Assembly: GCA_963730935.1 (NCBI GenBank)
Contig: CAVSTP010000003.1
Span: 608,001-672,000 of the forward strand
Source: an uncultured Nitrospiraceae bacterium
GTDB lineage: Bacteria > Nitrospirota > Nitrospiria > Nitrospirales > Nitrospiraceae
Reading direction: 5' to 3'
DNA length: 64,000 nucleotides
Shown: piece by piece, positions 3,660 through 55,958 of the stretch
Layout: each line of letters starts with the position of its first letter
Position numbering within the stretch: position 1 is the first letter of the stretch
Notes under the pieces: generated by a model
What the model saw: only the letters and a program-made list of their open reading frames with translations
Database searches by the model: none
What the model was told of the DNA's origin: nothing
Translations under genes and position numbers: made by a program

Positions 3660-3680
3660 TGGCCCCGGCTACGGAGGACT

Positions 3681-6829: not shown

Positions 6830-6833
6830 GGGA

Positions 6834-6986: not shown

Positions 6987-6999
6987 AGCAAAGACGGAG

Positions 7000-7853: not shown

Positions 7854-7854
7854 C

Positions 7855-9622: not shown

Positions 9623-9625
9623 GTT

Positions 9626-29810: not shown

Positions 29811-30467
29811 TCAGCGCCGGCTACTTGTGGGAGTGCTGAGCGTCAGCCGCTGGTCAATGGCAAACTGAATGAGTTCTGCGTTGCTTTTGAGACGAAACTG
29901 CTGCATGACACGGTATTTGTGAAAGGCGACGGTGCGGGCTGTGACATGCAGGACGTCGGCAGCTTCCTTCATCGTGTGCCCTTCAGCCAGCAGTTGCAGA
30001 ACTTCACGTTGGCGGGACGTCAATTCACTACCGTTCGAACGATCCCCTCCTTGGATGAACGACTCGACCATGCGTTGTGAGGCCTGGGAGGTCACATAGG
30101 TGTCGCCCCGCATGACTGTCCGGATGGCCTCAGGCAGCTCGCGGGCGGCCGAGGTTTTGAGCAGGAAGCCGGACGCTCCGAGGCCAAGCGCCTCCTTCGC
30201 CAGATCGGGATCTTCGTTCATTGTCAAGAAAATCAGTTTGACGACGGGCATCGAGTGTTTGATCTGGCGGCCGGCATCGAGCCCGTTCAACAGGGGCATG
30301 CCGATGTCAAGCACGATGACGTCGGGATGGAGCGCGATGGCCTTGGGAAGCAGCGCTCGTCCATCCGTCACGATACCGACGACTTCGCACTCCGGCTCGA
30401 GGAGGGCGACGCAGGCTTCCACAACCAGCCGGTGGTCGTCAGCGAGCAACACGCGTGGACGCGGCAT
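29811..30467 (-). CDS. NarL/FixJ-family response regulator (REC plus LuxR-type HTH)
   Basis: VLLADDH, DVIVLDIGMP, GFLLK; LTSRQREVLQLLAEG.TMKE.A..L.VT.RTV..H. Confidence 0.95.
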   Translation of the reverse strand: MPRPRVLLADDHRLVVEACVALLEPECEVVGIVTDGRALLPKAIALHPDVIVLDIGMPLLNGLDAGRQIKHSMPVVKLIFLTMNEDPDLAKEALGLGASGFLLKTSAARELPEAIRTVMRGDTYVTSQASQRMVESFIQGGDRSNGSELTSRQREVLQLLAEGHTMKEAADVLHVTARTVAFHKYRVMQQFRLKSNAELIQFAIDQRLTLSTPTSSRR

Positions 30468-30491
30468 GATTCCTCCTTCGCGACAAACGGC

Positions 30492-31613
30492 TCATGCCGC
30501 CAGGTGAACGGAAATCCTCGTGCCACGCGACGGCCGTGATTCTACGGCAATGGTGCCGCCCGCGGCATGTACCCGCTCCTGCATGCTGATCAGACCAAGA
30601 TGTCCCTTGGCGGAGACGACTTCCGGATCGAAACCAGCGCCGGCATCCGAGATACAGAGATGCAAAGTTCCCCGATGGCCAAACAACTCGAGCTGCCCGT
30701 CTTTCACACCGCTGTGCCTCATCGTGTTGTTCAAGGCTTCCTGAGCGACGCGGAACAGGCACAAGGCCGACTCCTTGGAAATTGAAGCGGGAACATCGCG
30801 GTAGAGAAAGTTGATCTGAGCGCCGTATTGCTCGGACATCTCCCGGCAGAGTCCTTTGATTGCCGCCACGAGACCAAGATGTTCCAGCTTGGCGGGGTGA
30901 AGTTGATGCGACAGACGATGGACATCCGATGCAACTTCCTGCGTTAACCGGCGCAAATCTCCGATGTGACTCCGACAGGTGCCATTGGTCTCCGTGCTCT
31001 GTTCCAGTCGCTCGAGGCCGATCGACAGCAAGGCCAGCCGTTGATTGAAATCATCATGGAGTTCTCGAGCGATGCGGCTGCGTTCTTCCTCTTGGGCGCT
31101 GATCAACCGGCCGGTCATTTCCTTCAGCGAACGCTCAGCGCGTTTGCGTTCCGTGATGTCCACCATGACGCCGATCATCTCCTTCAACGTTCCGTCTTCG
31201 ACGACGGCGTGGACCGAGTCGTGGAACCAGACTTCTCGCCCGTCGGCGGCCACCATACGATATTCCAGCGCATGATGCCGTTTGTCGTGCGTCGCGCGAC
31301 GGTACGACGCGACGGCTTTTAAGCGATCCTCGGGGTGAAGATGCGCCTCCCAGAAGGCTGGTTCGCAGAGCCATTGTGTAATCGGGTATCCCAAAATGCT
31401 TTCCGCCCGCTTGCTCACATAGCTGGTTCGAAAACTCCCGGCATCCGCGCGCCACACGATGGCTTCCAACGAGTCCACCAGTTCTTCGTAGCGCCGTTGA
31501 GCCTGGCGTATCGCGGCCTCTGCCTGCTGTACTAACGCGAAGGTTTCCTGCGGATCGGTCCTAGGGGATGAACGTGTGAGCATGGCCTCATCTCCGTCCA
31601 GATGGTCTGGCAC
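30492..31613 (-). CDS. Soluble PAS-domain sensor histidine kinase (HisKA_3)
   Basis: PAS/PAC (LHPEDR...EYRM...DITERK); ERSRIARELHDD; QEALNN, DAGAGFD, LGLISMQER; no TM segment. Confidence 0.92.
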   Translation of the reverse strand: MPDHLDGDEAMLTRSSPRTDPQETFALVQQAEAAIRQAQRRYEELVDSLEAIVWRADAGSFRTSYVSKRAESILGYPITQWLCEPAFWEAHLHPEDRLKAVASYRRATHDKRHHALEYRMVAADGREVWFHDSVHAVVEDGTLKEMIGVMVDITERKRAERSLKEMTGRLISAQEEERSRIARELHDDFNQRLALLSIGLERLEQSTETNGTCRSHIGDLRRLTQEVASDVHRLSHQLHPAKLEHLGLVAAIKGLCREMSEQYGAQINFLYRDVPASISKESALCLFRVAQEALNNTMRHSGVKDGQLELFGHRGTLHLCISDAGAGFDPEVVSAKGHLGLISMQERVHAAGGTIAVESRPSRGTRISVHLAA

Positions 31614-31766: not shown

Positions 31767-31811
31767 CTGTCAAATGTAACAGTTTCCCCCGTGGAATCCA
31801 GGTTGTAAAGT
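31767..31811 (+). promoter_or_regulatory. Regulon palindrome site 4 plus -10 element
   Basis: CTGTCA-AATG-TAACAG (31767-31782); TAAAGT at 31806. Confidence 0.72.
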
Positions 31812-31940: not shown

Positions 31941-34730
<2,790 letters not shown>

Positions 34731-38997: not shown

Positions 38998-39894
38998 TTA
39001 TTTCAGCGCTTCCGCGCCGCCGACGATGTCCATGAGTTCTTTGGTGATTACGGCCTGCCGGGTTTTGTTGTAGTAAATCGTCAGTTTCTTGATCAGTTCG
39101 CCGGCATTGCGCGTCGCACCGTCCATGGCTGTCATGCGGGCTCCCTGTTCTGCGGCCGACGATTCCAGCAGCATGCGATAGGCTTGGACGTGGAAATTAC
39201 GGTGCAGCAGTTGCTCCAACACTTCGGCTTCGCTCGGCTCGTAGAGATAGCCGCCGGGCATCTGCTCCATCGTGTGTTCAACGTCTTTCACGTCTGCAAT
39301 CTCGACAACCCAATCAATCGGAAGCAGCCGTTCGACGACGACACGCTGCTGAATGGCGGATTTGAACTCGTTGTAGATGGCATACACCGCATCGGTTCGC
39401 CCGGTCACATAGTCGTCGATGGCTTGAAGCTCCGTGCCCAGGAGCATGCCGTGCTCGAACGAGAGCTTGTCGAAGATGTCGACGACTTCGCGGCGGACCT
39501 TCCAGCTGCGTCGTCGGAAGAAATCGCGGCCTTTCTTGCCGATGACCGCCACTTCGACCTCCATCCCTTTCGACTCGAACTCCTTAAGCGCGGCGGCCGC
39601 AGTGCGAAGGATGTTGGCGTTGAAGGCGCCGCATAATCCCCGATCGCTCGTGACCACGGCAATGACGAGGTGATGCTCCTCACGCTTCTTGAGCAAGGGG
39701 TGCGCGTCTCGATTCACGCGCCGGCTGAGCGTTCGAATCGTATCCCGCATCTTGTGAGCGTACGGGCGGGCGGCGAGAATGCGGTCCTGCGTCCGCTTGA
39801 GCTTGGCCGCAGCGACCATCTTCATCGCTTTCGTGATCTTTTGGGTTTTCTTGACGGAATCGATCTTCCGCCTGACGGATTGGAGGCTTGGCAT
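38998..39894 (-). CDS. atpG: F1F0 ATP synthase gamma subunit, stand-alone copy
   Basis: KITKAMKMVAAAKL, SDRGLCGAFN, EQGARMTAMDGATRNA, NKTRQAVITKELMDIVGGAEAL; 298 aa, intact. Confidence 0.97.
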   Translation of the reverse strand: MPSLQSVRRKIDSVKKTQKITKAMKMVAAAKLKRTQDRILAARPYAHKMRDTIRTLSRRVNRDAHPLLKKREEHHLVIAVVTSDRGLCGAFNANILRTAAAALKEFESKGMEVEVAVIGKKGRDFFRRRSWKVRREVVDIFDKLSFEHGMLLGTELQAIDDYVTGRTDAVYAIYNEFKSAIQQRVVVERLLPIDWVVEIADVKDVEHTMEQMPGGYLYEPSEAEVLEQLLHRNFHVQAYRMLLESSAAEQGARMTAMDGATRNAGELIKKLTIYYNKTRQAVITKELMDIVGGAEALK

Positions 39895-40530: not shown

Positions 40531-40575
40531 CTGTCAAATTTGACAGTGTTCCCGGCAAAGTTGGCGTTGTAGAGT
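40531..40575 (+). promoter_or_regulatory. Regulon palindrome site 5 plus -10 element
   Basis: Perfect palindrome CTGTCAAATTTGACAG (40531-40546); TAGAGT at 40570. Confidence 0.78.
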
Positions 40576-40651: not shown

Positions 40652-41554
40652 ATGAACACTCTCAGCTCTCACGAGCAACAACAGCGGCAGATGAAGACAC
40701 ATCCCGGTTTCATTGCGGCACTGGACCAAAGCGGGGGCAGCACGCCCAAGGCGCTGCATCAATATGGAATCAAGGAAGGAGCATGGTCCAACGACAATGA
40801 AATGTTTACTATCGTACATCAGATGCGCGCGCGCATCATTACCAGTCCCGGTTTTTCCGGCAAGCGGATCATTGCCGCCATCTTGTTCGAAGACACCATG
40901 AATAGGGAGATCGCGGGGAAACCTACTGCGGACTATCTTTGGAATGAGAAGCAAGTGGTCCCTTTCCTCAAAGTGGACAAAGGCCTTTTGCCTGAAGAGA
41001 ACGGGGTTCAGTTGATGAAGCCCATCTCCGGACTTGCCGCACTGCTCGACAAAGCCAAAACGAAAAACATCTTCGGGACCAAGATGCGTTCTGTCATCAA
41101 GGAAGCCAATGGAGCCGGCATCAAGAACATCGTGAATCAGCAGTTCGAGATTGGGGGGCAGATCATCTCCGCTGGCCTCGTACCGATCCTCGAGCCTGAA
41201 GTTGACATTCGCTGTCCTGAGAAGGGCAAAGCCGAAGGGCTGCTCAAGGACGCCATCCTGAAGCAACTCAGCGAACTGCCGGCGAATCAATTGGTCATGC
41301 TCAAGCTCACAATTCCGGATCAAGACGACTTCTACCTTGATTGCATTCGACATCCTAAGGTGTTGAGGGTCGTCGCGCTGTCGGGCGGTTATACGAGGGA
41401 AGAAGCCAACAACCGTCTGCGGCGGAATCATGGACTCATCGCGAGCTTTTCGCGGGCACTGGTAGAAGGGCTGTCGGCCCAGCAATCCGATGCTGAGTTC
41501 AACGCCATGCTGGATAAATTCATTCAGAGCATCTTTGATGCGTCCAATACTTAA
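40652..41554 (+). CDS. fda: Class I fructose-bisphosphate aldolase (bacterial Fda type)
   Basis: [56 protein letters not shown]. Confidence 0.92.
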
Positions 41555-41621
41555 GATAAGCGGTCTGCTCTACTCGGACTGATGATAACTGAGGCGCAGG
41601 CCCTGACACTTCAGCGTTGAC

Positions 41622-42842
41622 ATGCGGATCCTGGTGATTAATAGCGGAAGCTCATCGATCAAATTCCGGCTCGCAGAGGTCGTAGAGGAAAAGGGCACAC
41701 TGGCAACGCGACCGGGCCTGCTCGAAGGGGCCGTCAAAGGGATTGGAGGCGCGCCGAGCGTCGACATGACTGGACAACTGGTGAGCCGTTCAACGACCAA
41801 GATAGAAGCTCGAGACCATACCCAGGCCATGCGTGTGCTCATGAATCAGCTTGGCAATTCGCTGAGCAGCATCCAAGCCGTGGGACACAGGGTGGTGCAC
41901 GGCGGAGACCGCTACGTCGAGTCCACTGTGATTACCGACCAGATTGAAGCTGGAATCGATGCGCTATCCGAATTGGCGCCGCTCCACAACCCTGCCTGTC
42001 TCGCGGGCATTCGGGGGGCGAAAGCGGCCTTGGGATCAACCGTTCCGATGGTGGCTGTCTTCGATACGGCGTTTCACCGAACGATGCCTGAAGTCGCCAG
42101 GCACTATGCGATCTCAACCGAGCTCGCCGATCGCCATCACATCCGCCGATATGGATTTCACGGGATCGCGCATGCGTCGCTCGCTAACGGCTACGGGGTC
42201 TGCACTGGAAACTCGTTGAAGCAGGCGCGCATCATCACGCTTCAGTTGGGCAACGGCTGTTCGGTCGCCGCGATTGCAGAAGGGAAATCGATCGAGACTT
42301 CGATGGGGTTTACTCCGTTGGAAGGCTTGGTTATGGGGACACGCTCGGGAGATATCGATCCTTCCGTCGTCAGTTATCTTTCCGAGCGGGAAAAAGTCGA
42401 ACCGGCCGAAGTGGAACGATGGCTCAACCAGCGATCCGGCCTCCTGGGACTCTCAGGACGATCCAATGACATGCGGGAGCTCTTGCGCGCCGTCGAGCAG
42501 GAAGGGGACCAGCGCGCCGAGTTCGCCGTCGATCTCTTTTGCTACCGGGTGCGTAAATATCTGGGCGCCTACCTGGCCGTATTGGGTGGCGCGGATGCGA
42601 TCGTCTTTGGAGGCGGCATTGGGGAAAACGCGCCGGAGGTTCGGAAACGAATCTGCCGGAACATGGAGTGGTGCGGGATGAGTGTTCATCCAGACCGCAA
42701 TCGGACTGCCGTAGGACTCAGCGCGGGGTCGGCGGGGAAGATCAGTACGGATGATTCGCGGGTGGCGGTGTACGTCGTGGCGGCCGACGAAGAAACATGG
42801 ATTGCAAAAGAAACGGCTCGCTGTGTGCGGGCGATCAATTGA
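41622..42842 (+). CDS. ackA: Acetate kinase
   Basis: ILVINSGSSSIK, GHRVVHGG, LAPLHN, DTAFH, RYGFHG, MGFTPLEGLVMGTRSGD. Confidence 0.96.
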   Translation: MRILVINSGSSSIKFRLAEVVEEKGTLATRPGLLEGAVKGIGGAPSVDMTGQLVSRSTTKIEARDHTQAMRVLMNQLGNSLSSIQAVGHRVVHGGDRYVESTVITDQIEAGIDALSELAPLHNPACLAGIRGAKAALGSTVPMVAVFDTAFHRTMPEVARHYAISTELADRHHIRRYGFHGIAHASLANGYGVCTGNSLKQARIITLQLGNGCSVAAIAEGKSIETSMGFTPLEGLVMGTRSGDIDPSVVSYLSEREKVEPAEVERWLNQRSGLLGLSGRSNDMRELLRAVEQEGDQRAEFAVDLFCYRVRKYLGAYLAVLGGADAIVFGGGIGENAPEVRKRICRNMEWCGMSVHPDRNRTAVGLSAGSAGKISTDDSRVAVYVVAADEETWIAKETARCVRAIN

Positions 42843-42896
42843 TTATTTTGCAGGCGCCATCCATGAATCGGGGTGGCGGCAGGGAGGGAACGCCTC

Positions 42897-45302
42897 ATGG
42901 GAAATGCACTTTCGGATAAAGAGCTGAAGCTGATTGATGCGTATTGGCGGGCGGCGAATTATCTCTCCGTCGGTCAGATCTACTTGTTCGACAACCCGCT
43001 GTTGAAACAACCGCTGAAGAAAGAGCACATCAAACCCCGCCTGCTCGGCCACTGGGGTACGACGCCGGGGCTGAATTTTCTCTATGCGCACTTGAATCGA
43101 GTGATCAAGCAGCGGGACCTGAACATGATGTACATCATCGGTCCAGGGCACGGCGGTCCCGCGATCGTGGCCAACGCTTACATGGAGGGGACCTACTCGG
43201 AAGTGTATCCGAACATGGCTCAGGACGAAGAGGGCATGAAGCGGCTGTTCAAGCAGTTTTCATTTCCGGGCGGCATTCCGAGTCACGTGGCGCCGGAGAC
43301 TCCCGGCTCCATCCATGAGGGCGGTGAATTGGGCTACGCGGTGTCGCATGCCTATGGCGCGGCGTACGACAATCCCGACCTGATCGTCGCCTGCGTCGTC
43401 GGAGACGGGGAGGCCGAAACCGGTCCGCTGGCGACGTCGTGGCACTCGAACAAGTTTCTCAACCCACTCACCGACGGCGTCGTGCTCCCGATTCTGCATT
43501 TGAACGGCTACAAGATCGCCAACCCCTGTGTGCTGGCCCGCATCAGCCATCAGGAGTTGGACCAGCTCTTCCGGGGCTACGGCTACACCCCGTATTTTGT
43601 CGAGGGAAGCGATCCCGAGAAGATGCACCAGATCATGGCGGCGACGCTCGACACGATCATTGAAGACATACACCGCATCAAGACTGAGGCGCGGCGGACG
43701 GGTGCCAAGAAGCGGCCGCTGTGGCCGATGATCATTCTTCGTTCTCCCAAAGGATGGACCTGTCCAAAAGAAATTGACGGGAAACGGTGCGAGGACTACT
43801 GGCGGAGCCATCAAGTGCCGATGGGCGACATGGAAAAGACAGAACACGTCAAGATCCTCGAAAAATGGATGAAGAGCTACAAGCCGGAAGACCTCTTCGA
43901 CAAGACCGGCCGCCTGAAACCTGAGTTGGCGGAGATGCCGCCGAAGGGTGATCGCCGCATGAGTGCTAATCCGCATGCCAACGGCGGGCTGCTGCTCAGG
44001 GATTTGCGGTTGCCCGACTATCAGGACTATGCGGTCCAAGTCGTCAAGCCCGGCGCGACGACGGCAGAATCCACCCGCCACATGGGAAAGTTCTTGCGCG
44101 ACACGATGAAGCTGAATCTGGAAAGCCGTAATTTTCGTCTGTTCAGTCCTGACGAGAACAACTCAAATCGCTGGCAGGACGTGTTGGAAGTCACGAATCG
44201 CGCTTGGATGGCGGAGAGTTTTCCATATGATGATCACCTGGCGCCGGATGGCCGCGTGATGGAAATGCTGAGCGAGCACCAGTGCCAGGGATGGCTGGAA
44301 GGGTATCTCCTGACGGGTCGGCACGGGTTCTTTTCCTGCTATGAGGCGTTCATCCACATCATCGATTCCATGTTCAATCAGCACGCCAAATGGCTGAAGG
44401 TCTGTAACGAGATCCCCTGGCGGAGATCCATCGCCTCGCTCAACTATTTGCTGAGCTCTCATGTGTGGCGGCAGGACCACAACGGATTCAGCCATCAGGA
44501 CCCGGGCTTCATCGATCACGTCGTCAATAAGAAAGCCGACGTCGTGAGGGTCTATCTGCCACCCGATGCGAACACGCTCTTGTCCGTGACCGATCACTGC
44601 CTGCGCAGCAGGAACTACGTCAACGTCATCGTGGCGGGTAAGCAGCCGGCACCGCAATGGCTGACGATGGACCAGGCGATCAAGCATTGTGCGGCCGGTA
44701 TCGGCATTTGGGAATGGGCGAGCAACGACAAAGGCTCAGATCCCGACGTCGTCATGGCGTGTTGCGGGGACGTGCCCACGCTCGAAACACTCGCCGCCGT
44801 GGACATTATCCGGCAGTACGTTCCGGCTTTGAAGATCCGCGTCGTGAACGTGGTAAATCTCATGAAATTACAGCCGCCCAGCGAGCATCCGCACGGTCTT
44901 TCGGACTTCGATTTCGATGCACTCTTTACGAAAGACAAGCCCGTGGTGTTCGCCTTCCACGGCTACCCGTGGTTGATTCATCGTCTCACCTATCGAAGGA
45001 CCAATCACAAGAACCTCCACGTGCGTGGGTACAAAGAGGAAGGCACGACCAGCACGCCGTTCGACATGGTCGTCATGAACGATCTCGACCGGTTCCACCT
45101 CATTGGCGATGTCGTGGACCGCTTGCCGCAACTTGGGTCTCGGGCTGCCTATGCCAAACAGGCGATCCAGGAGAAGCTGCTCGAGCACAAGCAATACATT
45201 GCCAAATACGGCGAGGACATGCCCGAGATCACCAATTGGCAATGGGGGCAGGGAAGTGGCAAGACGAAGCGCACAAGCTCAACGGAAGGCGACAACGTCT
45301 AG
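42897..45302 (+). CDS. xfp: Xylulose-5-P/fructose-6-P phosphoketolase
   Basis: [50 protein letters not shown]. Confidence 0.97.
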
Positions 45303-45333
45303 TTGCATCTTCTCCTTGTCGGAGGAGGGTTAA

Positions 45334-47808
45334 ATGACACAGGAACAGCTCCAACACTTGCTGCAGCAATACGGCGTGGGGCCCATCCAATTTTCCGGCA
45401 ATCACGACGCCCTGTATGAACGGCATTTGACCTTCGATAACGTCGTTGATCTCAAGAGCGCGACCATGCGGGAACGGTTTGAAGCGGCGGCGCATGCCAT
45501 CCGCGACATCGTGTCGCAACGCTGGCTGCTGACGGAGAAAACGTATGCCGAGAAGAATCCGAAGCGGGTCTATTACCTGTCGATGGAATATCTCCTGGGG
45601 AGGTCGTTTGCCAACAACATGACGAATGCGCTACTCCGCCCATTGGCAGCCGAACGTCAAAAACACCTAGGTCTAGATCCATTTGCATTGATCGAAAGTG
45701 AGCCGGATGCCGGACTGGGCAACGGCGGCCTTGGCAGATTGGCCGCCTGTTTCATCGATTCGATGGCGACGATGGAGATTCCAGGCATGGGGTACGGCCT
45801 GCGCTATGAGTACGGGATTTTCAAGCAAACGATCCAGGACGGGTGGCAACGGGAGCAGCCGGATAACTGGCTTCGGAGACCGGATCCTTGGGAGGTCGTG
45901 CGGCCGGATGATGCGGTCGAGGTGAAACTGAATTGTACGTTCGAACTTCGGGAAGGCATGCTGCGTCCCATCGTCGGTCGGCCTTCGGTTCTCCTCGGCA
46001 TCCCGTTCGATCGTCCGGTCATCGGTTACGGGGGCAAAACCATCAATACGCTGCGGCTCTGGGCGGCGAGCACTCCGGATTTTTTTGATTTTCAGCTGTT
46101 CAGTCGAGGGCATTTCGTGGGGGCGTTCGCAGAGATGCTTGCTGCGGAATCACTCACGCGCGTGCTCTACCCCGATGACTCGACAATCAGGGGGCAAGGT
46201 TTGCGATTTTTGCAAGAGTATTTTTTGGTGGCCTGTTCGCTGGGCGATCTGGTTCGGCGCTTTCGTCGTGGCAATCAAGATTGGAATGCTCTTCCGGAAA
46301 AAGCCGCCATCCAGTTGAATGACACCCATCCCACCATGGCCGTTCCCGAACTCATGCGTATCCTGCTCGATGAGGCCCATCTGGGATGGGATCAGGCCTG
46401 GGATCTCACACAACGGACGCTTGCCTATACGAACCATACCCTGTTGCCGGAGGCGTTGGAGACATGGCCGCTCGAATGGTTCGACGATATGCTGCCGCGG
46501 CATCTTGAAATTATTCTCGAGATCAACCGCCGCCTGCTGGAGGTGGTTCGAAACCGTTTTCCCGGAGACGACGGACGGCTAGCACGCGTCAGCCTTGTCG
46601 AGGAAGGGCAGCGGCGCAAGATCCGTATGGCCAACCTGGCGATTGTCGGGTCGCACAGCACCAACGGTGTGGCCGCCATCCATTCCAAGCTGCTCCGGAC
46701 GATGACCGTCAAGGACCTGGCCGACCTCTATCCCGAGCGGTTCAACAACAAGACCAACGGCGTTACCCCGCGGCGATGGCTGCTCCTGGCGAATCCGGCC
46801 CTCTCATCTGTGATTACCGAGGCCATCGGCGACGGATGGATTACCGATCTGAGCAAGCTTGCGCAGCTCAAGAAATTGGCCGACGATCCTCAATATCAAG
46901 AGGCGTTCCGCAAAGCAAAACGTGAAGCGAAGACGGCCTTTGCCCAGTGGCTTAAGACGACGTCCGGTCAATCCGTCGATCCGGACAGCATGTTCGATTG
47001 CCAAGTCAAACGCATTCACGAATACAAGCGGCAGCTGTTGAACGCGCTGCGCATCGTCGTGCTGTACAACCGCCTCCGTGAGAACCCCAACATGAGGATG
47101 GCCCCTCGAACGTTCTTTTTTGCCGGCAAAGCCGCGCCGGCCTATCACCTGGCCAAGGTCATCATCAAGTTCGTGAGCAATCTCGCCGGCACCATCGACG
47201 GGGATCCGAACGCTCGGGGAAAGATCAAAGTGGTATTCCTGCCCGAGTATTGCGTTTCGCTCGCCGAGCGGTTGATTCCCGCCACCGATGTCTCCAATCA
47301 GATTTCGACGGCCGGGTATGAGGCCAGCGGCACGAGCAATATGAAGTTCATGATGAATGGCGCGTTGACCTTGGGGACGCGAGACGGCGCTACGATCGAA
47401 ATGGCGGAGGAAGCGGGGGAGGATAACTTCTTTCTCTTCGGCCTCACGGCGGACCAAGTGGCGGGGAGCCGAGGTTGGTACGACCCATGGTGGCACTATG
47501 AACATGAGCCGCAAACGAGAGCGGCGCTCGATCTGATCTTCTCCAACTACTTCAGCCGGAATGAACCGGGAGCCTTTGCGCCGCTGGAACATGCGTTGCT
47601 GACGGGCGGGGATCATTACATGCATTTGGCCGACTTGACGTCCTACGTGAACGCCGACCGCGACGTCACCGATCTGTACGCCGACGCGAACGGTTGGGCG
47701 CGCAAGGCGATCTTGAACATTGCGGCCTCAGGGAAGTTCTCCAGCGATCGGACGATCGCCGAATATGCCGCGGGGATTTGGAATGTAAAGCCCTGTCCCG
47801 TTTCCTGA
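45334..47808 (+). CDS. glgP: Glycogen/starch phosphorylase
   Basis: LGNGGLGRLAAC, QLNDTHP, KRIHEYKRQ, PLP site EASGTSNMK. Confidence 0.97.
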   Translation: MTQEQLQHLLQQYGVGPIQFSGNHDALYERHLTFDNVVDLKSATMRERFEAAAHAIRDIVSQRWLLTEKTYAEKNPKRVYYLSMEYLLGRSFANNMTNALLRPLAAERQKHLGLDPFALIESEPDAGLGNGGLGRLAACFIDSMATMEIPGMGYGLRYEYGIFKQTIQDGWQREQPDNWLRRPDPWEVVRPDDAVEVKLNCTFELREGMLRPIVGRPSVLLGIPFDRPVIGYGGKTINTLRLWAASTPDFFDFQLFSRGHFVGAFAEMLAAESLTRVLYPDDSTIRGQGLRFLQEYFLVACSLGDLVRRFRRGNQDWNALPEKAAIQLNDTHPTMAVPELMRILLDEAHLGWDQAWDLTQRTLAYTNHTLLPEALETWPLEWFDDMLPRHLEIILEINRRLLEVVRNRFPGDDGRLARVSLVEEGQRRKIRMANLAIVGSHSTNGVAAIHSKLLRTMTVKDLADLYPERFNNKTNGVTPRRWLLLANPALSSVITEAIGDGWITDLSKLAQLKKLADDPQYQEAFRKAKREAKTAFAQWLKTTSGQSVDPDSMFDCQVKRIHEYKRQLLNALRIVVLYNRLRENPNMRMAPRTFFFAGKAAPAYHLAKVIIKFVSNLAGTIDGDPNARGKIKVVFLPEYCVSLAERLIPATDVSNQISTAGYEASGTSNMKFMMNGALTLGTRDGATIEMAEEAGEDNFFLFGLTADQVAGSRGWYDPWWHYEHEPQTRAALDLIFSNYFSRNEPGAFAPLEHALLTGGDHYMHLADLTSYVNADRDVTDLYADANGWARKAILNIAASGKFSSDRTIAEYAAGIWNVKPCPVS

Positions 47809-47837
47809 CAAGCGCGTGCACCGAACAGGTAGGTGTC

Positions 47838-48449
47838 ATGAACGAACATCTTCCCATCGTCTATCTCGCGAGGCACGGTGAAACGGCATGGACGATTTCG
47901 GGGCAGCACACAGGGCTGACCGATCTGCCGTTGACCGAACGCGGTGAGCGCACAGCCCGCAGACTAGGCGAACGGCTCAAAGGGTTGACGTTTGACTTAG
48001 TATTGACCAGTCCCCTGCAGCGGGCGGCCAGGACCTGCGAGCTTGCCGGCTTCAAGTCGGCGGCTGAAGTCGATAAAGACCTGGTGGAATGGGACTATGG
48101 TCAATATGAGGGACGCCGGACGGCCGACATTCTCGCGGAACGCCCGGGCTGGGAGTTGTTCCGCGACGGCTGTCCCGGAGGAGAGTCACCTCAACAAGTC
48201 AGCGTACGGGCCGACCGGGTGGTGAAGCGAGTGCGTGAGGTGGACGGAGACGTTCTCATCTTCACGAGCGGACATGTCATGCGAGTGCTCGCGGTGCGCT
48301 GGCTGGGGCTTGAGCCCTCGGTCAACTGCAAGTTCTTCATGCTGAGCACGGCGAGCCTGAGCGCCTTGGGGTATGAACACAATCGGTCCCGGCCGGTGAT
48401 ACGACTCTGGAACGAAACTCGTCACGTCGAGATGGGGCAGAACGATTGA
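47838..48449 (+). CDS. Histidine phosphatase (Shb17/Gpm2-like, candidate sugar bisphosphatase)
   Basis: ARHGETAW.ISGQHTGLTDLPLT, SPLQRA, EWDYGQYEG, CPGGES, SGH. Confidence 0.85.
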   Translation: MNEHLPIVYLARHGETAWTISGQHTGLTDLPLTERGERTARRLGERLKGLTFDLVLTSPLQRAARTCELAGFKSAAEVDKDLVEWDYGQYEGRRTADILAERPGWELFRDGCPGGESPQQVSVRADRVVKRVREVDGDVLIFTSGHVMRVLAVRWLGLEPSVNCKFFMLSTASLSALGYEHNRSRPVIRLWNETRHVEMGQND

Positions 48450-48477
48450 ACGATCATAGCGAAAAGGGACGGCAATC

Positions 48478-50154
48478 ATGACCACGACCGCACGCAGCGC
48501 TCGCCCGAAGCTCAAGCGAATGACATTTCTCCCACGGCGGAAAGCCTGGAAGGCGCTGCAAGCTCATTATAAGGCTATGCAGGAGGTGCATCTGCGCACG
48601 TTGTTTGCGGAGGATGCTCAGCGAGGCACACGCTTGACCGCTGAAGCCGCAGGACTGTTTCTGGATTATTCCAAGAACCGGGTGACAGACGAGACCATCC
48701 GGCTGCTCGTACAGCTGGCCGAGGAGTCCGGGCTGCGCGACCGCATCGAGGCCATGTTCAGAGGCGACAAAATCAATGTGACGGAACATCGAGCGGTCCT
48801 GCATGTCGCCTTACGCGCACCGCGTGAAGCGTCAATTATGGTCGATGGTGAGAATGTGGTGCCCAAAGTCCATGCGGTGCTGGATCAAATGACCGTCTTT
48901 GCGAACCGTGTGCGGAGCGGCGATTGGAAGGGCCATACGGGCAAGCGGATCAAGAACGTCGTGAATATCGGCATCGGCGGATCGGACCTGGGACCGGTCA
49001 TGGCTTATGAGGCGCTCAAGTACTACAGCGAGCGGTCCATGACGTTCCGGTTCGTTTCAAATGTCGACGGGACCGATTTCACAGAAGCCGTCCGTGATCT
49101 CCAGCCCGATGAGACCTTGTTCATCGTGTCCTCAAAAACGTTCACGACGCTCGAAACCATGACCAACGCCAACAGCGCGCGCGAGTGGTCGCTCGCGGGC
49201 CTGGGCGGCGAACCGGCCGCAGTGGCGAAGCATTTTGTTGCGGTCTCCACGAATGCGGCGGAAGTCGGAAAGTTCGGCATCGACACCGCGAACATGTTTC
49301 CATTCTGGGATTGGGTGGGCGGCCGCTACTCGATGTTCTCGGCGATCGGACTCTCGACGATGCTGGCGATCGGTCCCGAGCAGTTCCGCGCCATGCTCAA
49401 TGGCGCTCATCAGATCGACGAGCATTTCCGCACCGCGTCCTTGGCAGAGAATCTCCCGGTACTCATGGGATTGCTCACGGTCTGGTACGTCAATTTCTTG
49501 GGGGCTGAGACCGTCGGGGTATTGCCCTATGAGCAGTATTTGAAACGATTCCCCGCCTATCTGCAGCAATTAACGATGGAGAGCAACGGCAAACACGTCA
49601 CCATCGACGGCAAGGGGGTGTCCTACGACACCGGCCCCGTGTTTTGGGGAGAGCCTGGGACCAACGGGCAACATTCGTTTTATCAGCTCATCCATCAGGG
49701 CACGAGGCTGATTCCTTGCGACTTCATCGCCTTTCACCGGTCGCTCAATCCGCTCGGCCGACACCACGAGTTGTTGGTGGCCAATGTCTTCGCGCAAACC
49801 GAGGCGCTGGCATTCGGCAAGACGGCCGAGGAGGTAAGAGCGGAGGGGACGCCGGAGTGGCTCGTGCCGCACCGGGTGTTCGAGGGAAACCGTCCCTCCA
49901 ATACGCTGTTCGCCGAGAGGTTGACGCCCGAGATGCTCGGCAAACTGGTCGCGCTGTACGAACACTCCGTGTTCACGCAAGGCATCATTTGGACCATCGA
50001 CTCATTCGACCAGTGGGGGGTCGAGCTGGGCAAGGTGTTGGCTCAACGCATCATTCCGGAGCTCGAAAGTCAGGAAGAGCCTGCGCTCAAACACGATAGT
50101 TCAACGAATCATCTGATTGGACGCCACCGTGCAAGGGCCCGCTCCAAGACGTAG
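48478..50154 (+). CDS. pgi: Glucose-6-phosphate isomerase
   Basis: [34 protein letters not shown]. Confidence 0.97.
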
Positions 50155-50170
50155 CTGAGTCTCGTCAAGC

Positions 50171-52294
50171 ATGAATGACAGACCACGCACTCTGCGCAGC
50201 GATTCTCCCGCTCGTTCAGAACGATCAGCCCTGTGGTCTCAAGGCGCGAGTGCCCCTCTCGGCGCGACCGTCACGGAAGGCGGTGTCAATTTCAGCATCT
50301 CCTCACGCGACGCCACCCACCTCGAACTGCTCTTCTTCGATCAGGCGGATGACCCGAAGCCATCGCAGATCTTCGAACTGGATCCGCGCGGGCACCGCAC
50401 GTATCACTACTGGCATGTCTTCGTGCCGGGCGTTTGCCCAGGACAACTCTACGGCTTCCGCGCTCACGGTCCCTTCGATCCCGCGCGGGGAATGCGTTTT
50501 GATCCTACTAAAGTGCTGCTCGATCCCTATGGTCGCGGTGTCGTCGTTCCGGAACAATACAGCCGTATCGCTGCCGGTCAGGATGGCGACAATGCTGCGA
50601 CAGCGATGAAGAGTGTGGTGGTGGATCCGTCCGCATATGATTGGGAGAATGAGCTGCCGCTCAGGCATCCTGACGCTCGGACCATCATCTACGAGATGCA
50701 CGTGCGCGGCTTTACGCGGCACCCAAGGTCGGGAGTCGCCGAACACGAGCGCGGCACCTATGCCGGCCTGATCGAAAAGATTCCCTATCTGCAGGAGTTG
50801 AGCATCACGGCCGTCGAGCTGCTGCCGATATTCCAGTTCGACGCTCAGGACTCCCCGCCGGGCAAAGTCAATTATTGGGGTTACGCACCGGTGTCCTTCT
50901 TTGCGCCCCATCAGGCCTATAGCTCTCGTCGAGAGCCTCTCGGGGCGGTCAACGAATTTCGCGACATGGTCAAAGCGCTCCATCGAGCCGGCATCGAGGT
51001 CATTCTCGATGTCGTCTTCAATCACACGGCCGAAGGAGACGAATGCGGGCCAACCCTCAGTTTCCGCGGCCTGGACAACAATGCGTACTACATCCTCGAG
51101 GAGGACCGATCGCATTACGCCAATTACACGGGCACCGGCAACACGCTGAATGCGAACCATCCCGTGGTCCGCCGCATGATCGTGGACAGTCTGCGTTATT
51201 GGGTGCAGGAGATGCACGTGGATGGATTCCGGTTCGATCTCGCGTCGATCCTGACGCGTGATGAGAACGGTCAGGTGATGCCAAGTCCACCGGTCTTGTG
51301 GGATATCGAATCAGACCCGTCGCTCGCCGGCACGAAACTGATTGCGGAAGCCTGGGATGCCGCCGGCCTCTACCAGGTCGGCAGTTTCATCGGAGATTGC
51401 TGGAAGGAATGGAACGGGCGCTTCCGGGACGACGTCCGCAGTTTCTTCCGCGGCGAAGAGGGATCGTTGGGCCGGTTTGCCGATCGCTTGGTCGGCAGCC
51501 CGGAAATTTACGCGCACAAGCAGCGCGAGCCGGAGCAAAGCGTAAACTTCGTGACCTGTCACGACGGCTTCACGATGAACGACCTGGTCTCCTACAACGG
51601 AAAGCACAACGAGGCGAACGGTGAAGGCAACCGCGACGGCGCCGACGACAACCGGAGCTGGAATTGCGGCGTTGAAGGGCCGACCGATGATGCGGCCATC
51701 GAAGAGCTCCGAAACCGCCAGGTAAAGAATTTCCTCACTGTCACGCTGCTCTCGATCGGCGTCCCGATGATTCTGATGGGCGATGAGGTGCGAAGGACGC
51801 AGCATGGCAACAACAATGCCTACTGCCACGATAACGAGCTCAACTGGTTCGATTGGACCCTGGTGGCCAAACATGCCGATGTCCATCGGTTTGTGACACT
51901 GCTCAACCAACGACGGATTTTGCGGCCTGTCGAGCACGAACGCCAACGGATGACTCTCGCTCAGCTCATCCAGCAGGCCAATAAATCGTGGCATGGAGTG
52001 AAAGTTGGGCAGCCTGACTGGAGTCCGACTTCTCACAGCGTGGCGCTGAACGCGGAGATCAAACACGAAGGATTTGTAGGGTATTTTATCTTCAACGCTT
52101 ACTGGGAACATCTGGAATTCGAGCTGCCGATGCCCCCTGGCAGCCCATGGCGCCGGTGGATTGATACCGCGCTCGACTCGCCGATGGATATTGTTCCGTG
52201 GCGGACCCTGGTTCCCGTTACCGGTCTTGCCTATCAGGTCCAACCGCGGTCGGTGGTCGTATTGGTTGCCGACCTCACGGGCACTTCAAGATGA
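50171..52294 (+). CDS. glgX: Glycogen debranching enzyme (isoamylase)
   Basis: NYWGY, DVVFNHT, DGFRFDLA, IAEAWD, NFVTCHDGF, NNNAYC. Confidence 0.95.
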   Translation: MNDRPRTLRSDSPARSERSALWSQGASAPLGATVTEGGVNFSISSRDATHLELLFFDQADDPKPSQIFELDPRGHRTYHYWHVFVPGVCPGQLYGFRAHGPFDPARGMRFDPTKVLLDPYGRGVVVPEQYSRIAAGQDGDNAATAMKSVVVDPSAYDWENELPLRHPDARTIIYEMHVRGFTRHPRSGVAEHERGTYAGLIEKIPYLQELSITAVELLPIFQFDAQDSPPGKVNYWGYAPVSFFAPHQAYSSRREPLGAVNEFRDMVKALHRAGIEVILDVVFNHTAEGDECGPTLSFRGLDNNAYYILEEDRSHYANYTGTGNTLNANHPVVRRMIVDSLRYWVQEMHVDGFRFDLASILTRDENGQVMPSPPVLWDIESDPSLAGTKLIAEAWDAAGLYQVGSFIGDCWKEWNGRFRDDVRSFFRGEEGSLGRFADRLVGSPEIYAHKQREPEQSVNFVTCHDGFTMNDLVSYNGKHNEANGEGNRDGADDNRSWNCGVEGPTDDAAIEELRNRQVKNFLTVTLLSIGVPMILMGDEVRRTQHGNNNAYCHDNELNWFDWTLVAKHADVHRFVTLLNQRRILRPVEHERQRMTLAQLIQQANKSWHGVKVGQPDWSPTSHSVALNAEIKHEGFVGYFIFNAYWEHLEFELPMPPGSPWRRWIDTALDSPMDIVPWRTLVPVTGLAYQVQPRSVVVLVADLTGTSR

Positions 52295-52324
52295 ATATTC
52301 GTAGTGTTTTGAGAGGAGTGAGCT

Positions 52325-53140
52325 ATGGCAAAAGACGGTAAGGGAGACGGCAACGGCAATTCCAAACTCAAGCGCAAGGAATACGAGAAGGAGCTGCGCC
52401 GGCTGCAGGCCGAATTGTGCCACCTTCAGGCCTGGGTAAAGCACAAGGGGCTTCGAATCATTATCCTGTTCGAAGGCCGCGATGGCGCTGGGAAAGGGGG
52501 GACCATTCGCGCCATTACCGAGCGTGTCAGTCCCCGTGTGTTCCGCGTGGTGGCGTTGCCTGCCCCCTCCGATCGCGAAAAGACGCAGATGTACTTACAA
52601 CGCTACATGACGCACTTCCCGGCGGCGGGTGAGATCGTGATTTTTGACCGGAGCTGGTACAACCGGGCAGGAGTCGAACATGTCATGGGCTTTTGCACCA
52701 AGGAGCAGTACAAAGCCTTTCTCGAACATGCGCCGACGGTCGAGGGCTACATCACCAAGGCAGGCATCCGACTGGTCAAGTACTGGCTCGAGGTCAGCAA
52801 TGACGAGCAAGAACGGCGCTTCCAGGCTCGCCTCGATGACCCGTTACGCCAGTGGAAACTCAGTCCGATAGATCTTCCTTCGCGGGAGAAATGGTACGAG
52901 TACTCGCGCGCACGCGACCGGATGCTGGAGGCCACGGACTCGAAGCACGCACCCTGGCATCTCGTGCGGTCGGACAATAAGCGAAGGGCGCGATTGAATA
53001 TTATCAAACACTTCTTGAGTTCTATCCCCTACAAAAAGATGCCCTATAAGAAGGTCAAGCTGCCCAAGCGATCGCACAAGCATGAATATGACGACCAGGC
53101 GACGCTGAAGGGAAGGAAGTTCATTCCCGAGGTGTACTGA
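52325..53140 (+). CDS. ppk2: Polyphosphate kinase 2 (single domain)
   Basis: EGRDGAGKGG, FDRSWYNRAGVE, WKLSPID. Confidence 0.95.
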   Translation: MAKDGKGDGNGNSKLKRKEYEKELRRLQAELCHLQAWVKHKGLRIIILFEGRDGAGKGGTIRAITERVSPRVFRVVALPAPSDREKTQMYLQRYMTHFPAAGEIVIFDRSWYNRAGVEHVMGFCTKEQYKAFLEHAPTVEGYITKAGIRLVKYWLEVSNDEQERRFQARLDDPLRQWKLSPIDLPSREKWYEYSRARDRMLEATDSKHAPWHLVRSDNKRRARLNIIKHFLSSIPYKKMPYKKVKLPKRSHKHEYDDQATLKGRKFIPEVY

Positions 53141-53150
53141 GGAGGCGCAC

Positions 53151-55958
53151 ATGCCTACACGAGCGACAGGAAGGGAGCAGGCCACGAAGGGGAAGCAGAC
53201 GTACCTGACCGTCGAGCATGAACGGTTGTCCACCGATGGACAGGCATGGAAACGCTGGGGCCCCTACCTGAGCGAGCGTCAGTGGGGAACGGTCCGGGAG
53301 GACTACAGCGAAGGCGGGGACGCCTGGAATTATTTTACCCACGACCACGCCCGCTCGCGCGCCTACCGCTGGGGCGAAGACGGCCTCGCCGGTTTGTCCG
53401 ACGAAGAGCAGCGACTGTGCTTTGCCCTGGCCCTCTGGAACGGCAGGGACCCCATTCTCAAGGAACGCCTCTTCGGCTTGACCAACAGCGAAGGCAACCA
53501 CGGAGAGGATGTCAAAGAATACTACTTCTACCTCGACAGCACGCCAACGCACTCCTACATGAAGTTTCTCTACAAGTATCCTCAGGCCGCCTATCCCTAT
53601 GATGAGCTGGTCCACACGAATAGGCAGCGGAGCCGGGAGATACCGGAATACGAATTGCTCGATACCGGGGTCTTCAACGACGACCGCTACTTCGACGTCT
53701 TCGTCGAATATGCGAAGGCTGGACCAGATGATGTTCTCATTCAGATCACGGCAGCGAACCGGGGGCCGGAGGCGGCTGATCTTCACATCTTCCCGACGTT
53801 GTGGTTCCGGAACAATTGGGCTTCTTGGCAATCCAGGCCTGTCGAGAAACCGTCATTGAAACAGGTGAAGGGACCCAGAGGGACCAAGATCGTAGCGGCC
53901 ACCCATCCAACTTTGGGCGAATACCTGCTGTACTGCGAGGGGGAAGCGCCGCTGCTCTTTACCGACAACGAAACCAACAACGAACGGCTCTTTCCTGAAT
54001 ATCCCAACGCCAGTCCCTATGTGAAAGACGGCATCAATAATTACGTCGTCCAAGGTCAACAGCATGCCATCAATCCCGACCAAACCGGCACGAAGGTCTC
54101 GGCGCACTACCGGTTCAAGATTGCCCCCGGCGGGACCGCGACGGCGAAACTGCGTTTGGTTCGGCAGAACGTGCCGGCGGCCAAAGGCGCCAATCCCACA
54201 AAGGCAGCAGAAAAAACGAAGGTGGCCTCCCCATTCGGCCAAGGCTTTAATGACATCATGCAAGATCGGTTGCGGGAAGCCGATGAGTTCTACCGCGCGG
54301 TGACCCCTCCTTCGGTCACGCCCGATGAGGCGAACGTCATGCGGCAGGCCTTGGCCGGCATGCTCTGGAGCAAGCAGTTCTACTATCTCGATGCCGATCA
54401 GTGGTTGGAAGAACATTTTGCGCATCCTCTTCACAGCGGAAGCCGAGAGTTTCGAAACCGCGAGTGGTTTCACATGGTCAACCGCGACATCATTTCGATG
54501 CCGGACAAATGGGAATATCCCTGGTATGCCGCCTGGGATTTGGCGTTTCATACGCTGCCGATTTCGATTGTGGATCCCGAGTTCGCGAAGCACCAGATGA
54601 AATTAATGTTTCACGGGTATTACCTCCATCCGAGCGGCCAGATTCCGGCCTATGAGTGGAACTTCAGCGACGTGAATCCGCCTGTGCACGCCTGGGCCAC
54701 CCTGTTTCTGCACCGGACCGAGCAGGCCCTGCGCGGCGAGGGGGACATTGATTTTCTCAAGTCGGCCTTCAACAAGCTCCTGCTCAACTTCACCTGGTGG
54801 GTGAATCGGAAAGATCGTTTCGGCAAGAACGTCTTCGAGGGCGGCTTTTTAGGTCTCGACAACATCGGTGTGTTCGACCGAAGCGCTCCCTTGCCGACGG
54901 GCGGTCACCTCGAACAGGCAGACGGCACCGCGTGGATGGCCTTGTTCAGTCAGAACATGCTCGAAATCGCGGTAGAAATTGCCCCTCATGACCGCACATA
55001 CGCCGACATGGTCGAAAAATTCGTCGAGCATTTTCTCTACATTGCTGCGGCCATGAATGGGTCCGGCTCCGACGGCATGTGGGACGAAGAAGATGGGTTT
55101 TACTACGATCTCCTGCGATTGCCCGATGGACACTCCACCAGACTGAAAGTCCGCTCCATGGTGGGTCTGCTGCCGCTTTGCGCGACCACCGTCGTTGAAG
55201 ACTGGCAGCGAGAGCGGGTGCCCGAGGTGGCCGCCACGCTTCAGCAGCGTATGGAACAGATGCCTGAACTCCTGACGTTCATCCACAAGACAGGGCGGGC
55301 GCACCGTGGAGTGGCCGACCGCGGCATTCTGGCGCTGGTCAATGAAGAGCGGTTACGTCGCATTCTCTCGAAGATGCTGGACGAGAACGAGTTTCTGAGC
55401 CCCTACGGCATTCGCTCGCTCTCCAAGTTTCATCAACAGCATCCGTTCGTATTTCATGTCGGGGGGCAGGTCTACCGAGTGGACTACCTTCCGGCCGAAT
55501 CCAACACGGGGATGTTCGGCGGCAACTCCAACTGGCGTGGGCCCGTTTGGATGCCAGTGAATGCCATGATCATCCGGGCGCTGCTGTCGTACTACCTCTA
55601 TTATGGTGACAACTTCAAAATCGAATGCCCCACTGGGTCCGGCCGGATGATGAACCTGTTCGAGGTCAGCAAGGAAATTGCCAACCGCCTTACGGGAATT
55701 TTTCTGCGGGACGCACAAGGCAAGCGTGCGGTGTACGGTGGAACGGAAACATTCCAGTCCGATCCGCATTGGCGCGATTATCTTCAGTTCTACGAGTACT
55801 TCCACGGGGACAACGGCGCCGGGCTGGGCGCCAACCATCAGACCGGCTGGACGGGTTTGGTCGCGAAGATGATCGAACTCTACGGCCGACTGGATCCACA
55901 AATGCTGCTCAAGGAAGGAAAACGCGGCGCGCATGCAGGAGGAAAAACGGGAAAGTGA
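53151..55958 (+). CDS. MGH1-like / GH63 glycoside hydrolase (paralog 2)
   Basis: Same motifs as 31941..34730, with long identical peptide stretches. Confidence 0.88.
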   Translation: MPTRATGREQATKGKQTYLTVEHERLSTDGQAWKRWGPYLSERQWGTVREDYSEGGDAWNYFTHDHARSRAYRWGEDGLAGLSDEEQRLCFALALWNGRDPILKERLFGLTNSEGNHGEDVKEYYFYLDSTPTHSYMKFLYKYPQAAYPYDELVHTNRQRSREIPEYELLDTGVFNDDRYFDVFVEYAKAGPDDVLIQITAANRGPEAADLHIFPTLWFRNNWASWQSRPVEKPSLKQVKGPRGTKIVAATHPTLGEYLLYCEGEAPLLFTDNETNNERLFPEYPNASPYVKDGINNYVVQGQQHAINPDQTGTKVSAHYRFKIAPGGTATAKLRLVRQNVPAAKGANPTKAAEKTKVASPFGQGFNDIMQDRLREADEFYRAVTPPSVTPDEANVMRQALAGMLWSKQFYYLDADQWLEEHFAHPLHSGSREFRNREWFHMVNRDIISMPDKWEYPWYAAWDLAFHTLPISIVDPEFAKHQMKLMFHGYYLHPSGQIPAYEWNFSDVNPPVHAWATLFLHRTEQALRGEGDIDFLKSAFNKLLLNFTWWVNRKDRFGKNVFEGGFLGLDNIGVFDRSAPLPTGGHLEQADGTAWMALFSQNMLEIAVEIAPHDRTYADMVEKFVEHFLYIAAAMNGSGSDGMWDEEDGFYYDLLRLPDGHSTRLKVRSMVGLLPLCATTVVEDWQRERVPEVAATLQQRMEQMPELLTFIHKTGRAHRGVADRGILALVNEERLRRILSKMLDENEFLSPYGIRSLSKFHQQHPFVFHVGGQVYRVDYLPAESNTGMFGGNSNWRGPVWMPVNAMIIRALLSYYLYYGDNFKIECPTGSGRMMNLFEVSKEIANRLTGIFLRDAQGKRAVYGGTETFQSDPHWRDYLQFYEYFHGDNGAGLGANHQTGWTGLVAKMIELYGRLDPQMLLKEGKRGAHAGGKTGK

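Follow-up and report, generated by a model that had tools for sequence, protein, structure and literature searches.

A nine-gene operon that combines genes for glycogen breakdown with those for phosphoketolase (Xfp) and acetate kinase (AckA) was found at positions 40652–55958 of a 64,000-nucleotide stretch of DNA (hereafter, the window) from an uncultured bacterium of the family Nitrospiraceae. Chuang and Liao reportedly dealt in 2021 with a cyanobacterial survival pathway consisting of phosphoketolase and acetate kinase (XPK-ACK), a study cited in PMC10365998, and synthetic non-oxidative glycolysis (NOG) is said to have been described by Bogorad in 2013. According to excerpts of PMC10365998, XPK-ACK produces the ATP with which cells survive dark, anaerobic, and osmotic stress, and six residues of the S. 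elongatus enzyme (SeXPK), H706, Y710, R711, H719, R721, and R753, make up an allosteric ATP-inhibition site. Excerpts of PMC5889684 state that E. coli NOG strains ferment glucose mostly to acetate and that no natural organism is known to rely on NOG as its only sugar route. For the comammox Nitrospira LK70, homoacetate fermentation via POR and Pta was proposed and electron disposal was left open (excerpts of PMC7078480); the word "phosphoketolase" is absent from the text and two supplements of that paper. No description of a Nitrospira phosphoketolase pathway or a native NOG operon was found in the literature searched, most of which lies outside subscription journals.

Similar to the cyanobacterial system, the operon encodes an acetate kinase and an Xfp that is closest, among solved proteins, to S. 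elongatus XPK; H703, Y707, R708, H716, R718, and R750 of Xfp correspond to all six ATP-site residues; ATP supply under energy stress is proposed for both systems (excerpts of PMC10365998). On the other hand, xfp here shares its operon and box with the genes for GlgP, GlgX, Pgi, an aldolase, a candidate for a non-classical bisphosphatase, and Ppk2, and the host, a nitrite oxidizer with the reductive tricarboxylic acid cycle (excerpts of PMC7078480), has no Calvin cycle to brake. By this analogy, the operon likely works like the XPK-ACK pathway, and Xfp is predicted from the conserved residues to be inhibited by ATP; in vitro, enzymes of the SeXPK type respond to ATP and not to ADP. With synthetic NOG, the host shares all enzyme classes and the stoichiometry of 3 acetyl phosphate per fructose 6-phosphate; it differs in its intact Embden-Meyerhof-Parnas and oxidative pentose phosphate genes, in tal-gnd-zwf being under the same box, and in glycogen as the substrate. 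Because no Pta was found, the product here would be ATP and acetate, not acetyl-CoA as in synthetic NOG. Compared with the sedoheptulose bisphosphate (SBP) cycle with a trifunctional phosphoketolase (SCTPK), the operon has candidates for both irreversible steps, phosphoketolase and SBP phosphatase (SBPase), and for the aldolase, with Tpi, Rpi, and Rpe being housekeeping enzymes here, and Shb17 was among the SBPases tried for that cycle (excerpts of PMC10468489). Cleavage of sedoheptulose 7-phosphate (S7P) by Xfp, SBP formation by Fda, and SBPase activity would be candidate functions in such a cycle. The LK70 genome contains a cluster with ackA-xfp, pgi, the phosphatase gene, glgX, glgP, and ppk2, whereas its carbon was routed via POR and Pta, not phosphoketolase, in the proposal (excerpts of PMC7078480). 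Since the phosphoketolase route needs no electron sink, Xfp would remove the redox problem of LK70.

We consider it about 60% probable that the operon is a stress-regulon module yielding ATP from glycogen and polyphosphate, whose recycling arm is shared by redox-neutral and oxidative modes. Glycogen would be converted to hexose phosphate by GlgP and GlgX, falling ATP would lift the inhibition of Xfp, Xfp would split hexose phosphate to acetyl phosphate, and AckA would convert acetyl phosphate to ATP and acetate, with Ppk2 adding ATP from polyphosphate. Fda, a Gpm2/Shb17-like phosphatase, and Pgi would form the recycling arm, by which the triose and tetrose left over by Xfp would return to sugar phosphates. 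Together with housekeeping Pgm, Tpi, Rpe, and RpiA, and optionally Tkt and Tal, this arm could close a redox-neutral loop yielding up to 3 ATP per glucosyl unit when no electron acceptor is left, and under a demand for NAD(P)H it could also serve the tal-gnd-zwf branch, which is co-regulated. The initial annotation had regarded the operon as a survival pathway for ATP supply, and this part of it is favored by the ATP-site residues of Xfp, the Gpm2/Shb17-like phosphatase, the rearrangement enzymes, the feasible stoichiometry, the absence of a Pta match, and the rise of Xfp and Ppk2 of N. marina at low O2.

The question addressed by such a phosphoketolase route is the survival of nominally aerobic nitrifiers without oxygen or nitrite. 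The route adjoins the ackA listed in the 2020 comammox study (excerpts of PMC7078480), and the locus adds an aldolase and bisphosphatase candidate, a regulon, and a candidate regulator. The native operon groups candidates for the irreversible steps of a loop so far built only synthetically; if the loop does not close, the operon would be no more than the cyanobacterial Xpk-AckA survival pathway extended to Nitrospira.

Organization of the operon and its host

The source genome, which is 99.9% complete, contains two NxrA/NxrB-like loci and gave no match to AmoA, indicating that the host is a canonical nitrite-oxidizing Nitrospira. The genes of the operon are as follows.

40652–41554, + strand: fda, class I fructose-bisphosphate aldolase (NF003784), present besides a DhnA-type housekeeping enzyme
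41622–42842, + strand: ackA, acetate kinase (NCBIfam), single copy found in the genome
42873–45302, + strand: xfp, phosphoketolase (NCBIfam), with SeXPK-type ATP-inhibition residues H703, Y707, R708, H716, R718, and R750
45334–47808, + strand: glgP, glycogen phosphorylase (TIGR02093)
47838–48449, + strand: Gpm2/Shb17-like histidine phosphatase, predicted fructose/sedoheptulose bisphosphatase, with Ser144 in place of the second pocket His
48478–50154, + strand: pgi, glucose-6-phosphate isomerase, sole PF00342 gene found in the genome
50171–52294, + strand: glgX, glycogen debranching enzyme (NCBIfam), one of four paralogues
52325–53140, + strand: ppk2, class I-like polyphosphate kinase 2 (TIGR03707), predicted polyphosphate-to-ADP transfer
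53151–55958, + strand: GH63/MGH1-like glycoside hydrolase (Pfam), one of four paralogues

All nine open reading frames (ORFs) are intact and lie on the + strand with intergenic gaps of 10–67 bp, in agreement with the tightly spaced, co-oriented run from fda to the GH63 gene described in the initial annotation. The G+C content at third codon positions of the operon genes (0.65–0.76) is in line with the genome. The products of fda, ackA, xfp, glgP, pgi, glgX, and ppk2 passed the NCBIfam cut-offs, and Pfam assigned the phosphatase, whose start codon is ATG at 47838, to His_Phos_1 and the last gene product to GH63/MGH1-like enzymes. The following ORF begins 26 bp past the GH63 gene and also comes after GH63 in the related genome G032; therefore, the unit probably continues beyond 55958. 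Neither a dehydrogenase gene nor pgm is present inside 40652–55958. GlgX is a debranching hydrolase that does not itself release glucose 1-phosphate, and the earlier attribution of this release to GlgP and GlgX together has to be dropped for GlgX.

The GH63 gene product had no solved relative by sequence. Four large GH63/MGH1-like paralogues were found (window 31941–34730 and 53151–55958; G000 C4:1796826 and C1:73193), three of them in box-led units.

Fate of acetyl phosphate

With E. coli queries, the genome gave no match to Pta, leaving acetyl phosphate without an evident exit other than AckA, and none to AdhE, HypA, or HypB, so that no ethanol or H2 sink was seen. Acs is present in the genome. 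In the bifid shunt and the heterolactic phosphoketolase pathway, triose is oxidized and the NADH is disposed of as lactate or ethanol; with respect to these pathways, the genome gave, besides the missing AdhE, two D-2-hydroxyacid dehydrogenase-like matches at 28–37%, L-LDH, PoxB, and PflB not being included in the search.

The Gpm2/Shb17-like phosphatase

The phosphatase gave Gpm2 (Rv3214; E = 2e-34) and yeast Shb17/YK23 (E = 5e-27) as its best PDB matches (2a6p, 3f3k, 3ll4, and 3oi7), followed by the next family at 2e-15, and its identity to the two proteins is 30–38%, which does not fix the substrate. The alignment-based fold model had a predicted local distance difference test (pLDDT) score of 92, against only 31 for a single-sequence fold, and its top fold matches were Gpm2 and then Shb17. 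R12, H13, R62, E84, H146, and R149 were invariant in 87 of 87 homologues. Compared with Gpm2/Shb17, the RHG motif is kept, as are the residues aligned with Arg, Glu, His178, and Arg181; the differences are Ser at the His176 position and His at Tyr24. The second pocket His of Gpm2 and Shb17 belongs to the xHGH motif. According to excerpts of PMC4535450, Gpm2 is a broad-specificity phosphatase with fructose bisphosphatase (FBPase) activity and a Km of 5.5 mM for fructose bisphosphate (FBP), and Shb17 is an FBPase/SBPase. The likeness in sequence and modeled fold leads us to predict a fructose/sedoheptulose bisphosphatase.

The genome also has a class I FBPase, beside the DhnA-type aldolase. Class I FBPases are inhibited by AMP, and this inhibition would be a reason for having a further enzyme that is independent of metal and serves low-energy states. 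In a quick phosphatase tree, the 13 Nitrospiraceae sequences fell into one group (SH-aLRT 92), a result that supports no donor claim.

A large histidine phosphatase subfamily with S-G-H for H-G-H extends across phyla (window 47838–48449 and loci L082–L161). At least 8000 proteins, other subfamilies included, matched the phosphatase at E ≤ 1e-30, and no characterized member of the subfamily was seen. The Gpm2/Shb17-like subfamily may offer metal-independent bisphosphatases for engineered cycles.

Enzyme inventory and stoichiometry

Pgm, Tkt, Tpi, Rpe, and RpiA, which the initial annotation had expected elsewhere in the genome, were all found there, together with two Tal. The NOG enzyme set (phosphoketolase, Tal, Tkt, Tpi, Rpe, Rpi, aldolase, and FBPase) is complete in this one genome. 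GlpX and class II Fba had no match in the genome with E. coli queries, and FBPase class V and RpiB were not found in it.

With enzyme activities assumed, a linear program gave 3 acetyl phosphate (3 ATP) per glucosyl unit from GlgP with no NADH, and the previously claimed yield of 3 acetyl phosphate per fructose 6-phosphate with no NADH or CO2 is feasible on these terms. The 3:1 ratio agrees with excerpts of PMC10468489 and PMC5889684. The program was solved via Tal/Tkt, or without Tal/Tkt if Xfp cleaves S7P; otherwise, Tkt was needed. No solution existed without aldolase, without bisphosphatase, or on the box-led genes alone. The same network also yielded 12 NAD(P)H per glucosyl unit as a cyclic oxidative pathway.

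Upstream box and candidate regulator

The following regulatory features were identified in the window.

40531–40546, no strand: 16-bp palindromic box CTGTCA-N4-TGACAG, predicted activator site; perfect palindrome TGTCAAATTTGACA at 40532–40545
40570–40575, + strand: predicted −10 hexamer TAGAGT, 23 bp past the box (sequence and spacing statistics)
29811–30467, − strand: NarL/FixJ-type response regulator, candidate box reader, co-occurring with the box over 31 genomes
30492–31613, − strand: cytoplasmic PAS-HisKA_3 sensor kinase, candidate partner, with a box at 31767–31782 just upstream

The perfect palindrome copy noted earlier ahead of the operon was thus located at 40532–40545. In the window alone, the four palindrome matches with at most 3 mismatches are within chance, 9 of 100 shuffles reaching four. 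In the whole genome, TGTCA-N4-TGACA occurred in 20 copies against 1.9 expected and 0–7 for the other spacers from 0 to 10, and the 16-mer with at most one mismatch had 33 sites against 2–13 for other spacers. This spacer test is the preferred control; that based on a position weight matrix (PWM) is loose (38 matches vs. 0–17 for column-shuffled matrices). Over the 33 sites, TAnnnT was counted 14 times at a distance of exactly 23 bp and at most 3 times at any other spacing, which suggests that the box is an activator site near −42. Generic sigma-70 (7 vs. 6.9) and terminator (17 vs. 16.3) scans gave chance-level counts.

The box is kept ahead of the operon in G004, G013, G015, G022, G026, and G030. 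Other box-led genes encode a catalase HPII-like protein, HpnR, EgtB/EgtD-like enzymes, urease, a urea transporter, SYLF lipoproteins, and the GH63 paralogues; the first three entries form a stress set, which counts in favor of a stress-regulon module. The box at L066:12925 (G000 C3:537924) lies between the urease genes and the urea transporter gene, tying urea use to the same regulon.

An orthologue of the response regulator with at least 55% identity was found in 14 of 31 genomes, all of which had 2–16 exact boxes, and 14 of the 17 genomes without it had no exact box, the exceptions being G022 (9), G014 (2), and G079 (1). Because related genomes are not independent, this co-occurrence is a lead, and the kinase and regulator pair at 29811–31613 would be the best candidate box reader. 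The box resembles the lux-box pattern CTG-N10-CAG. An acyl-homoserine lactone quorum-sensing lux box was rejected; no PF03472 (autoinducer-binding domain) match over the cut-off was found in the genome.

Synteny among relatives and in other phyla

Among 32 same-genus genomes, matches to xfp were found in 28, to ackA in 26, and to fda in 16, with fragments counted, and fda-ackA-xfp were adjacent in 10; lineages throughout the order have ackA and xfp side by side. In G008, G064, and G079, and by inspection in G006, the place of fda before ackA-xfp is taken by a eukaryote-type class I aldolase gene. The occurrence of two aldolase families in the same place is the best evidence that the aldolase works with Xfp. 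G064, which has no match to the gnd of the host, shows the order box-aldolase-ackA-xfp-glgX-glgP-pgm-tkt-phosphatase-pgi with a divergent gene for pyrophosphate (PPi)-dependent phosphofructokinase. Gene content around the module varies widely between relatives.

In G031 (L031:3305–4576), G008, G064, and G079 (L049, L140, and L269), the xfp unit is preceded by a PPi-dependent phosphofructokinase gene on the opposite strand, and G031 and G008 are without a phosphatase orthologue. Run backwards, this enzyme could replace the bisphosphatase and save PPi.

Outside the genus, the best 80 of 529 phosphatase loci, 42 of them with full flanks, were examined for neighbors within 10 kb. These loci span Acidobacteriota, Planctomycetota, Verrucomicrobiota, Alphaproteobacteria, and others, and the neighbors were glgP (40), pgi (31), xfp (27), gnd (27), pgm (25), tal (24), ackA (23), zwf (18), and fda (4). 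Judging from these clusters, the operon is one arrangement of a widespread modular glycogen/pentose phosphate cluster, in which the aldolase-phosphatase-pgi trio appears to serve oxidative and non-oxidative partners alike.

A stand-alone DUF2090 protein is encoded in clusters L091, L110, L118, L122, L133, and L136, and in L118, L122, and L136 the order pgi-DUF2090-rpe places it in the slot that belongs to fda in strings of the pgi-fda-rpe type. A match to the aldolase half of NF047869 suggests that this protein may be an unrecognized sugar-phosphate aldolase. An ORF of the LOG/SLOG family is inserted in the xfp clusters of LK70 (L089:5350–6129) and a planctomycete (L093:9220–9954), and a nucleotide-related role in the module is possible.

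Published expression data

In N. marina at low O2 (PMC8115632, Data Set 3), Xfp was 2.2-fold higher (adjusted P = 1.1e-4), Ppk2 rose from 0 to 19–28 counts (adjusted P = 5.5e-7), and the neighboring alpha-amylase was 2.7-fold higher; three Zwf and two Gnd were unchanged, and Tkt and Pgi showed no significant change. The xfp locus of N. marina is a different locus in a different lineage from the operon described here. The LK70 cluster (L089) has the order ackA-xfp-pgi-phosphatase-orf-glgX-glgP-ppk2-pfk, and ackA, pgi, glgP, and ppk2 are listed in Table S3a (excerpts of PMC7078480); the LK70 genome has no exact box. Contigs from four public soil RNA runs are short, mostly 90–95% pieces over the whole stretch and show neither transcription nor induction.

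Evidence against the proposed module and alternative explanations

A number of results weigh against the proposed module. In the phosphatase, Ser144 replaces the second pocket His of Gpm2 and Shb17 in 84 of 87 homologues. The six-residue ATP motif was present in 32 of 38 Xfp sequences and is therefore no distinguishing mark of this operon. The operon pgi is the only PF00342 gene found in the genome, in which neither a bifunctional phosphoglucose/phosphomannose isomerase nor a Tal-Pgi fusion was found (cupin-type isomerases were not searched); the unit must thus also serve biosynthesis, and some basal expression is expected. No box was found ahead of pgm, tkt, tpi, rpe, or rpiA. The synteny survey, which gave the adjacency of fda-ackA-xfp on the favorable side, also revealed that G001, G025, G031, and G005 keep xfp-ppk2(-GH63) with ackA elsewhere in the genome, and that these four have no fda match and no phosphatase orthologue, a distant match only. 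An fda or eukaryote-type aldolase gene was present in 5 of the best 80 phosphatase loci. In the expression data, the phosphorylase and aldolase of N. marina did not rise at low O2, and no row with "acetate" occurs in Data Set 3 (PMC8115632); the LK70 cluster had 0–0.32 RPKM in one unaerated-tank sample, for which the xfp and phosphatase tags were inferred from gene order (excerpts of PMC7078480). The remaining adverse results concern oxidative metabolism: the oxidative branches of the host are intact (three zwf, two gnd, two pfk, gap, pgk, and pyk), a near-equal box (PWM score 26.9 vs. 27.2) heads tal-gnd-zwf on contig C4, and the 24 same-genus genomes yielded 4 tal orthologues, all of them preceded by the box. 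In the best 80 of 576 metagenome loci with a related fda, the neighbors were pgi (55), gnd (32), rpe (26), zwf (20), and xfp (3), the query having come from a gnd-linked locus, which biases this count.

The form of the proposal in which a closed natural NOG/SBP cycle runs in the host is less likely than not. The genes permit a closed cycle, as the redox-neutral interpretation in the initial annotation had it, and the trio equally fits a cyclic pentose phosphate pathway of the oxidative kind, with whose genes it usually occurs elsewhere. The lack of a dehydrogenase, put forward for that interpretation, holds for 40652–55958 but fails at the regulon level, since the box ahead of tal-gnd-zwf brings dehydrogenases into the regulon. 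As the oxidative branches are intact and share the box, we did not assign the operon to NOG. Equally tentative is a self-gating version, in which, at low ATP, Xfp, Fda, and the Shb17-like phosphatase would carry glycogen through a short SBP cycle, each glucosyl unit yielding 3 acetate and 3 ATP without formation of CO2 or NADH; this would be how many soil nitrite oxidizers survive anoxia and starvation.

It is rather unlikely that the regulon is mainly an oxidative pentose phosphate stress kit, in which glycogen would feed Zwf and Gnd for NAD(P)H, Fda, the phosphatase, Pgi, and Tal would recycle pentoses and trioses, and Xfp-AckA would skim only some ATP, with part of the carbon leaving as CO2 and no closed redox-neutral loop. 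Besides the box ahead of tal-gnd-zwf and the tal orthologues, this explanation is consistent with the order box-tal-fda-gnd in G022, with the occurrence of the fda subfamily elsewhere in pgi-fda-(rpe)-gnd-zwf strings, with the 12 NAD(P)H per glucosyl unit obtained from the same enzymes, and with the box at catalase and ergothioneine-type genes. Within 10 kb, gnd or zwf was found at 26 of 53 phosphatase loci without xfp, but at just 3 of 27 with xfp, and the gnd of the host lay within 15 kb of the phosphatase gene in 4 of 19 xfp-bearing genomes examined whole. Two aldolase families directly precede ackA-xfp in Nitrospiraceae, the tal orthologue was found in only 4 of the 24 same-genus genomes, and low O2 raised Xfp, not Zwf or Gnd, in N. 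marina, all of which, like the low counts at xfp-bearing loci, argue against a mainly oxidative kit. That the cluster is a mosaic assembled from carbohydrate genes for general stress, with a broad sugar phosphatase for phosphate scavenging or glucose release, Pgi and Fda in ordinary biosynthesis, and Xfp as an overflow valve, is improbable: the variable gene content, the broad specificity and Km of Gpm2 (excerpts of PMC4535450), the replaced pocket His, the sole pgi, a GH63 enzyme without a place in the cycle, and the near-zero LK70 transcripts fit it, but the tight spacing, the conserved box, ackA beside xfp across the order, the positional replacement of the aldolase, and the invariant Arg12/His13/Arg62/Glu84 and His146/Arg149 do not.

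Other features of the window

At 600–9700 of the window, several housekeeping genes (guaB-, guaA-, rluB-, and aspS-like) and the gene for an NHL-repeat protein seem to be divided among reading frames, pointing to indel errors in this part of the assembly; the operon is unaffected. An orphan gene for a second F1 gamma subunit is located at 38998–39894 (− strand), and its product is 64% identical to that of atpG in the main ATP synthase operon on C2. This gene adjoins the xfp unit here and in G001, G005, G008, G013, G022, G025, G026, and G031, and the subunit might tune ATP synthase under energy stress.

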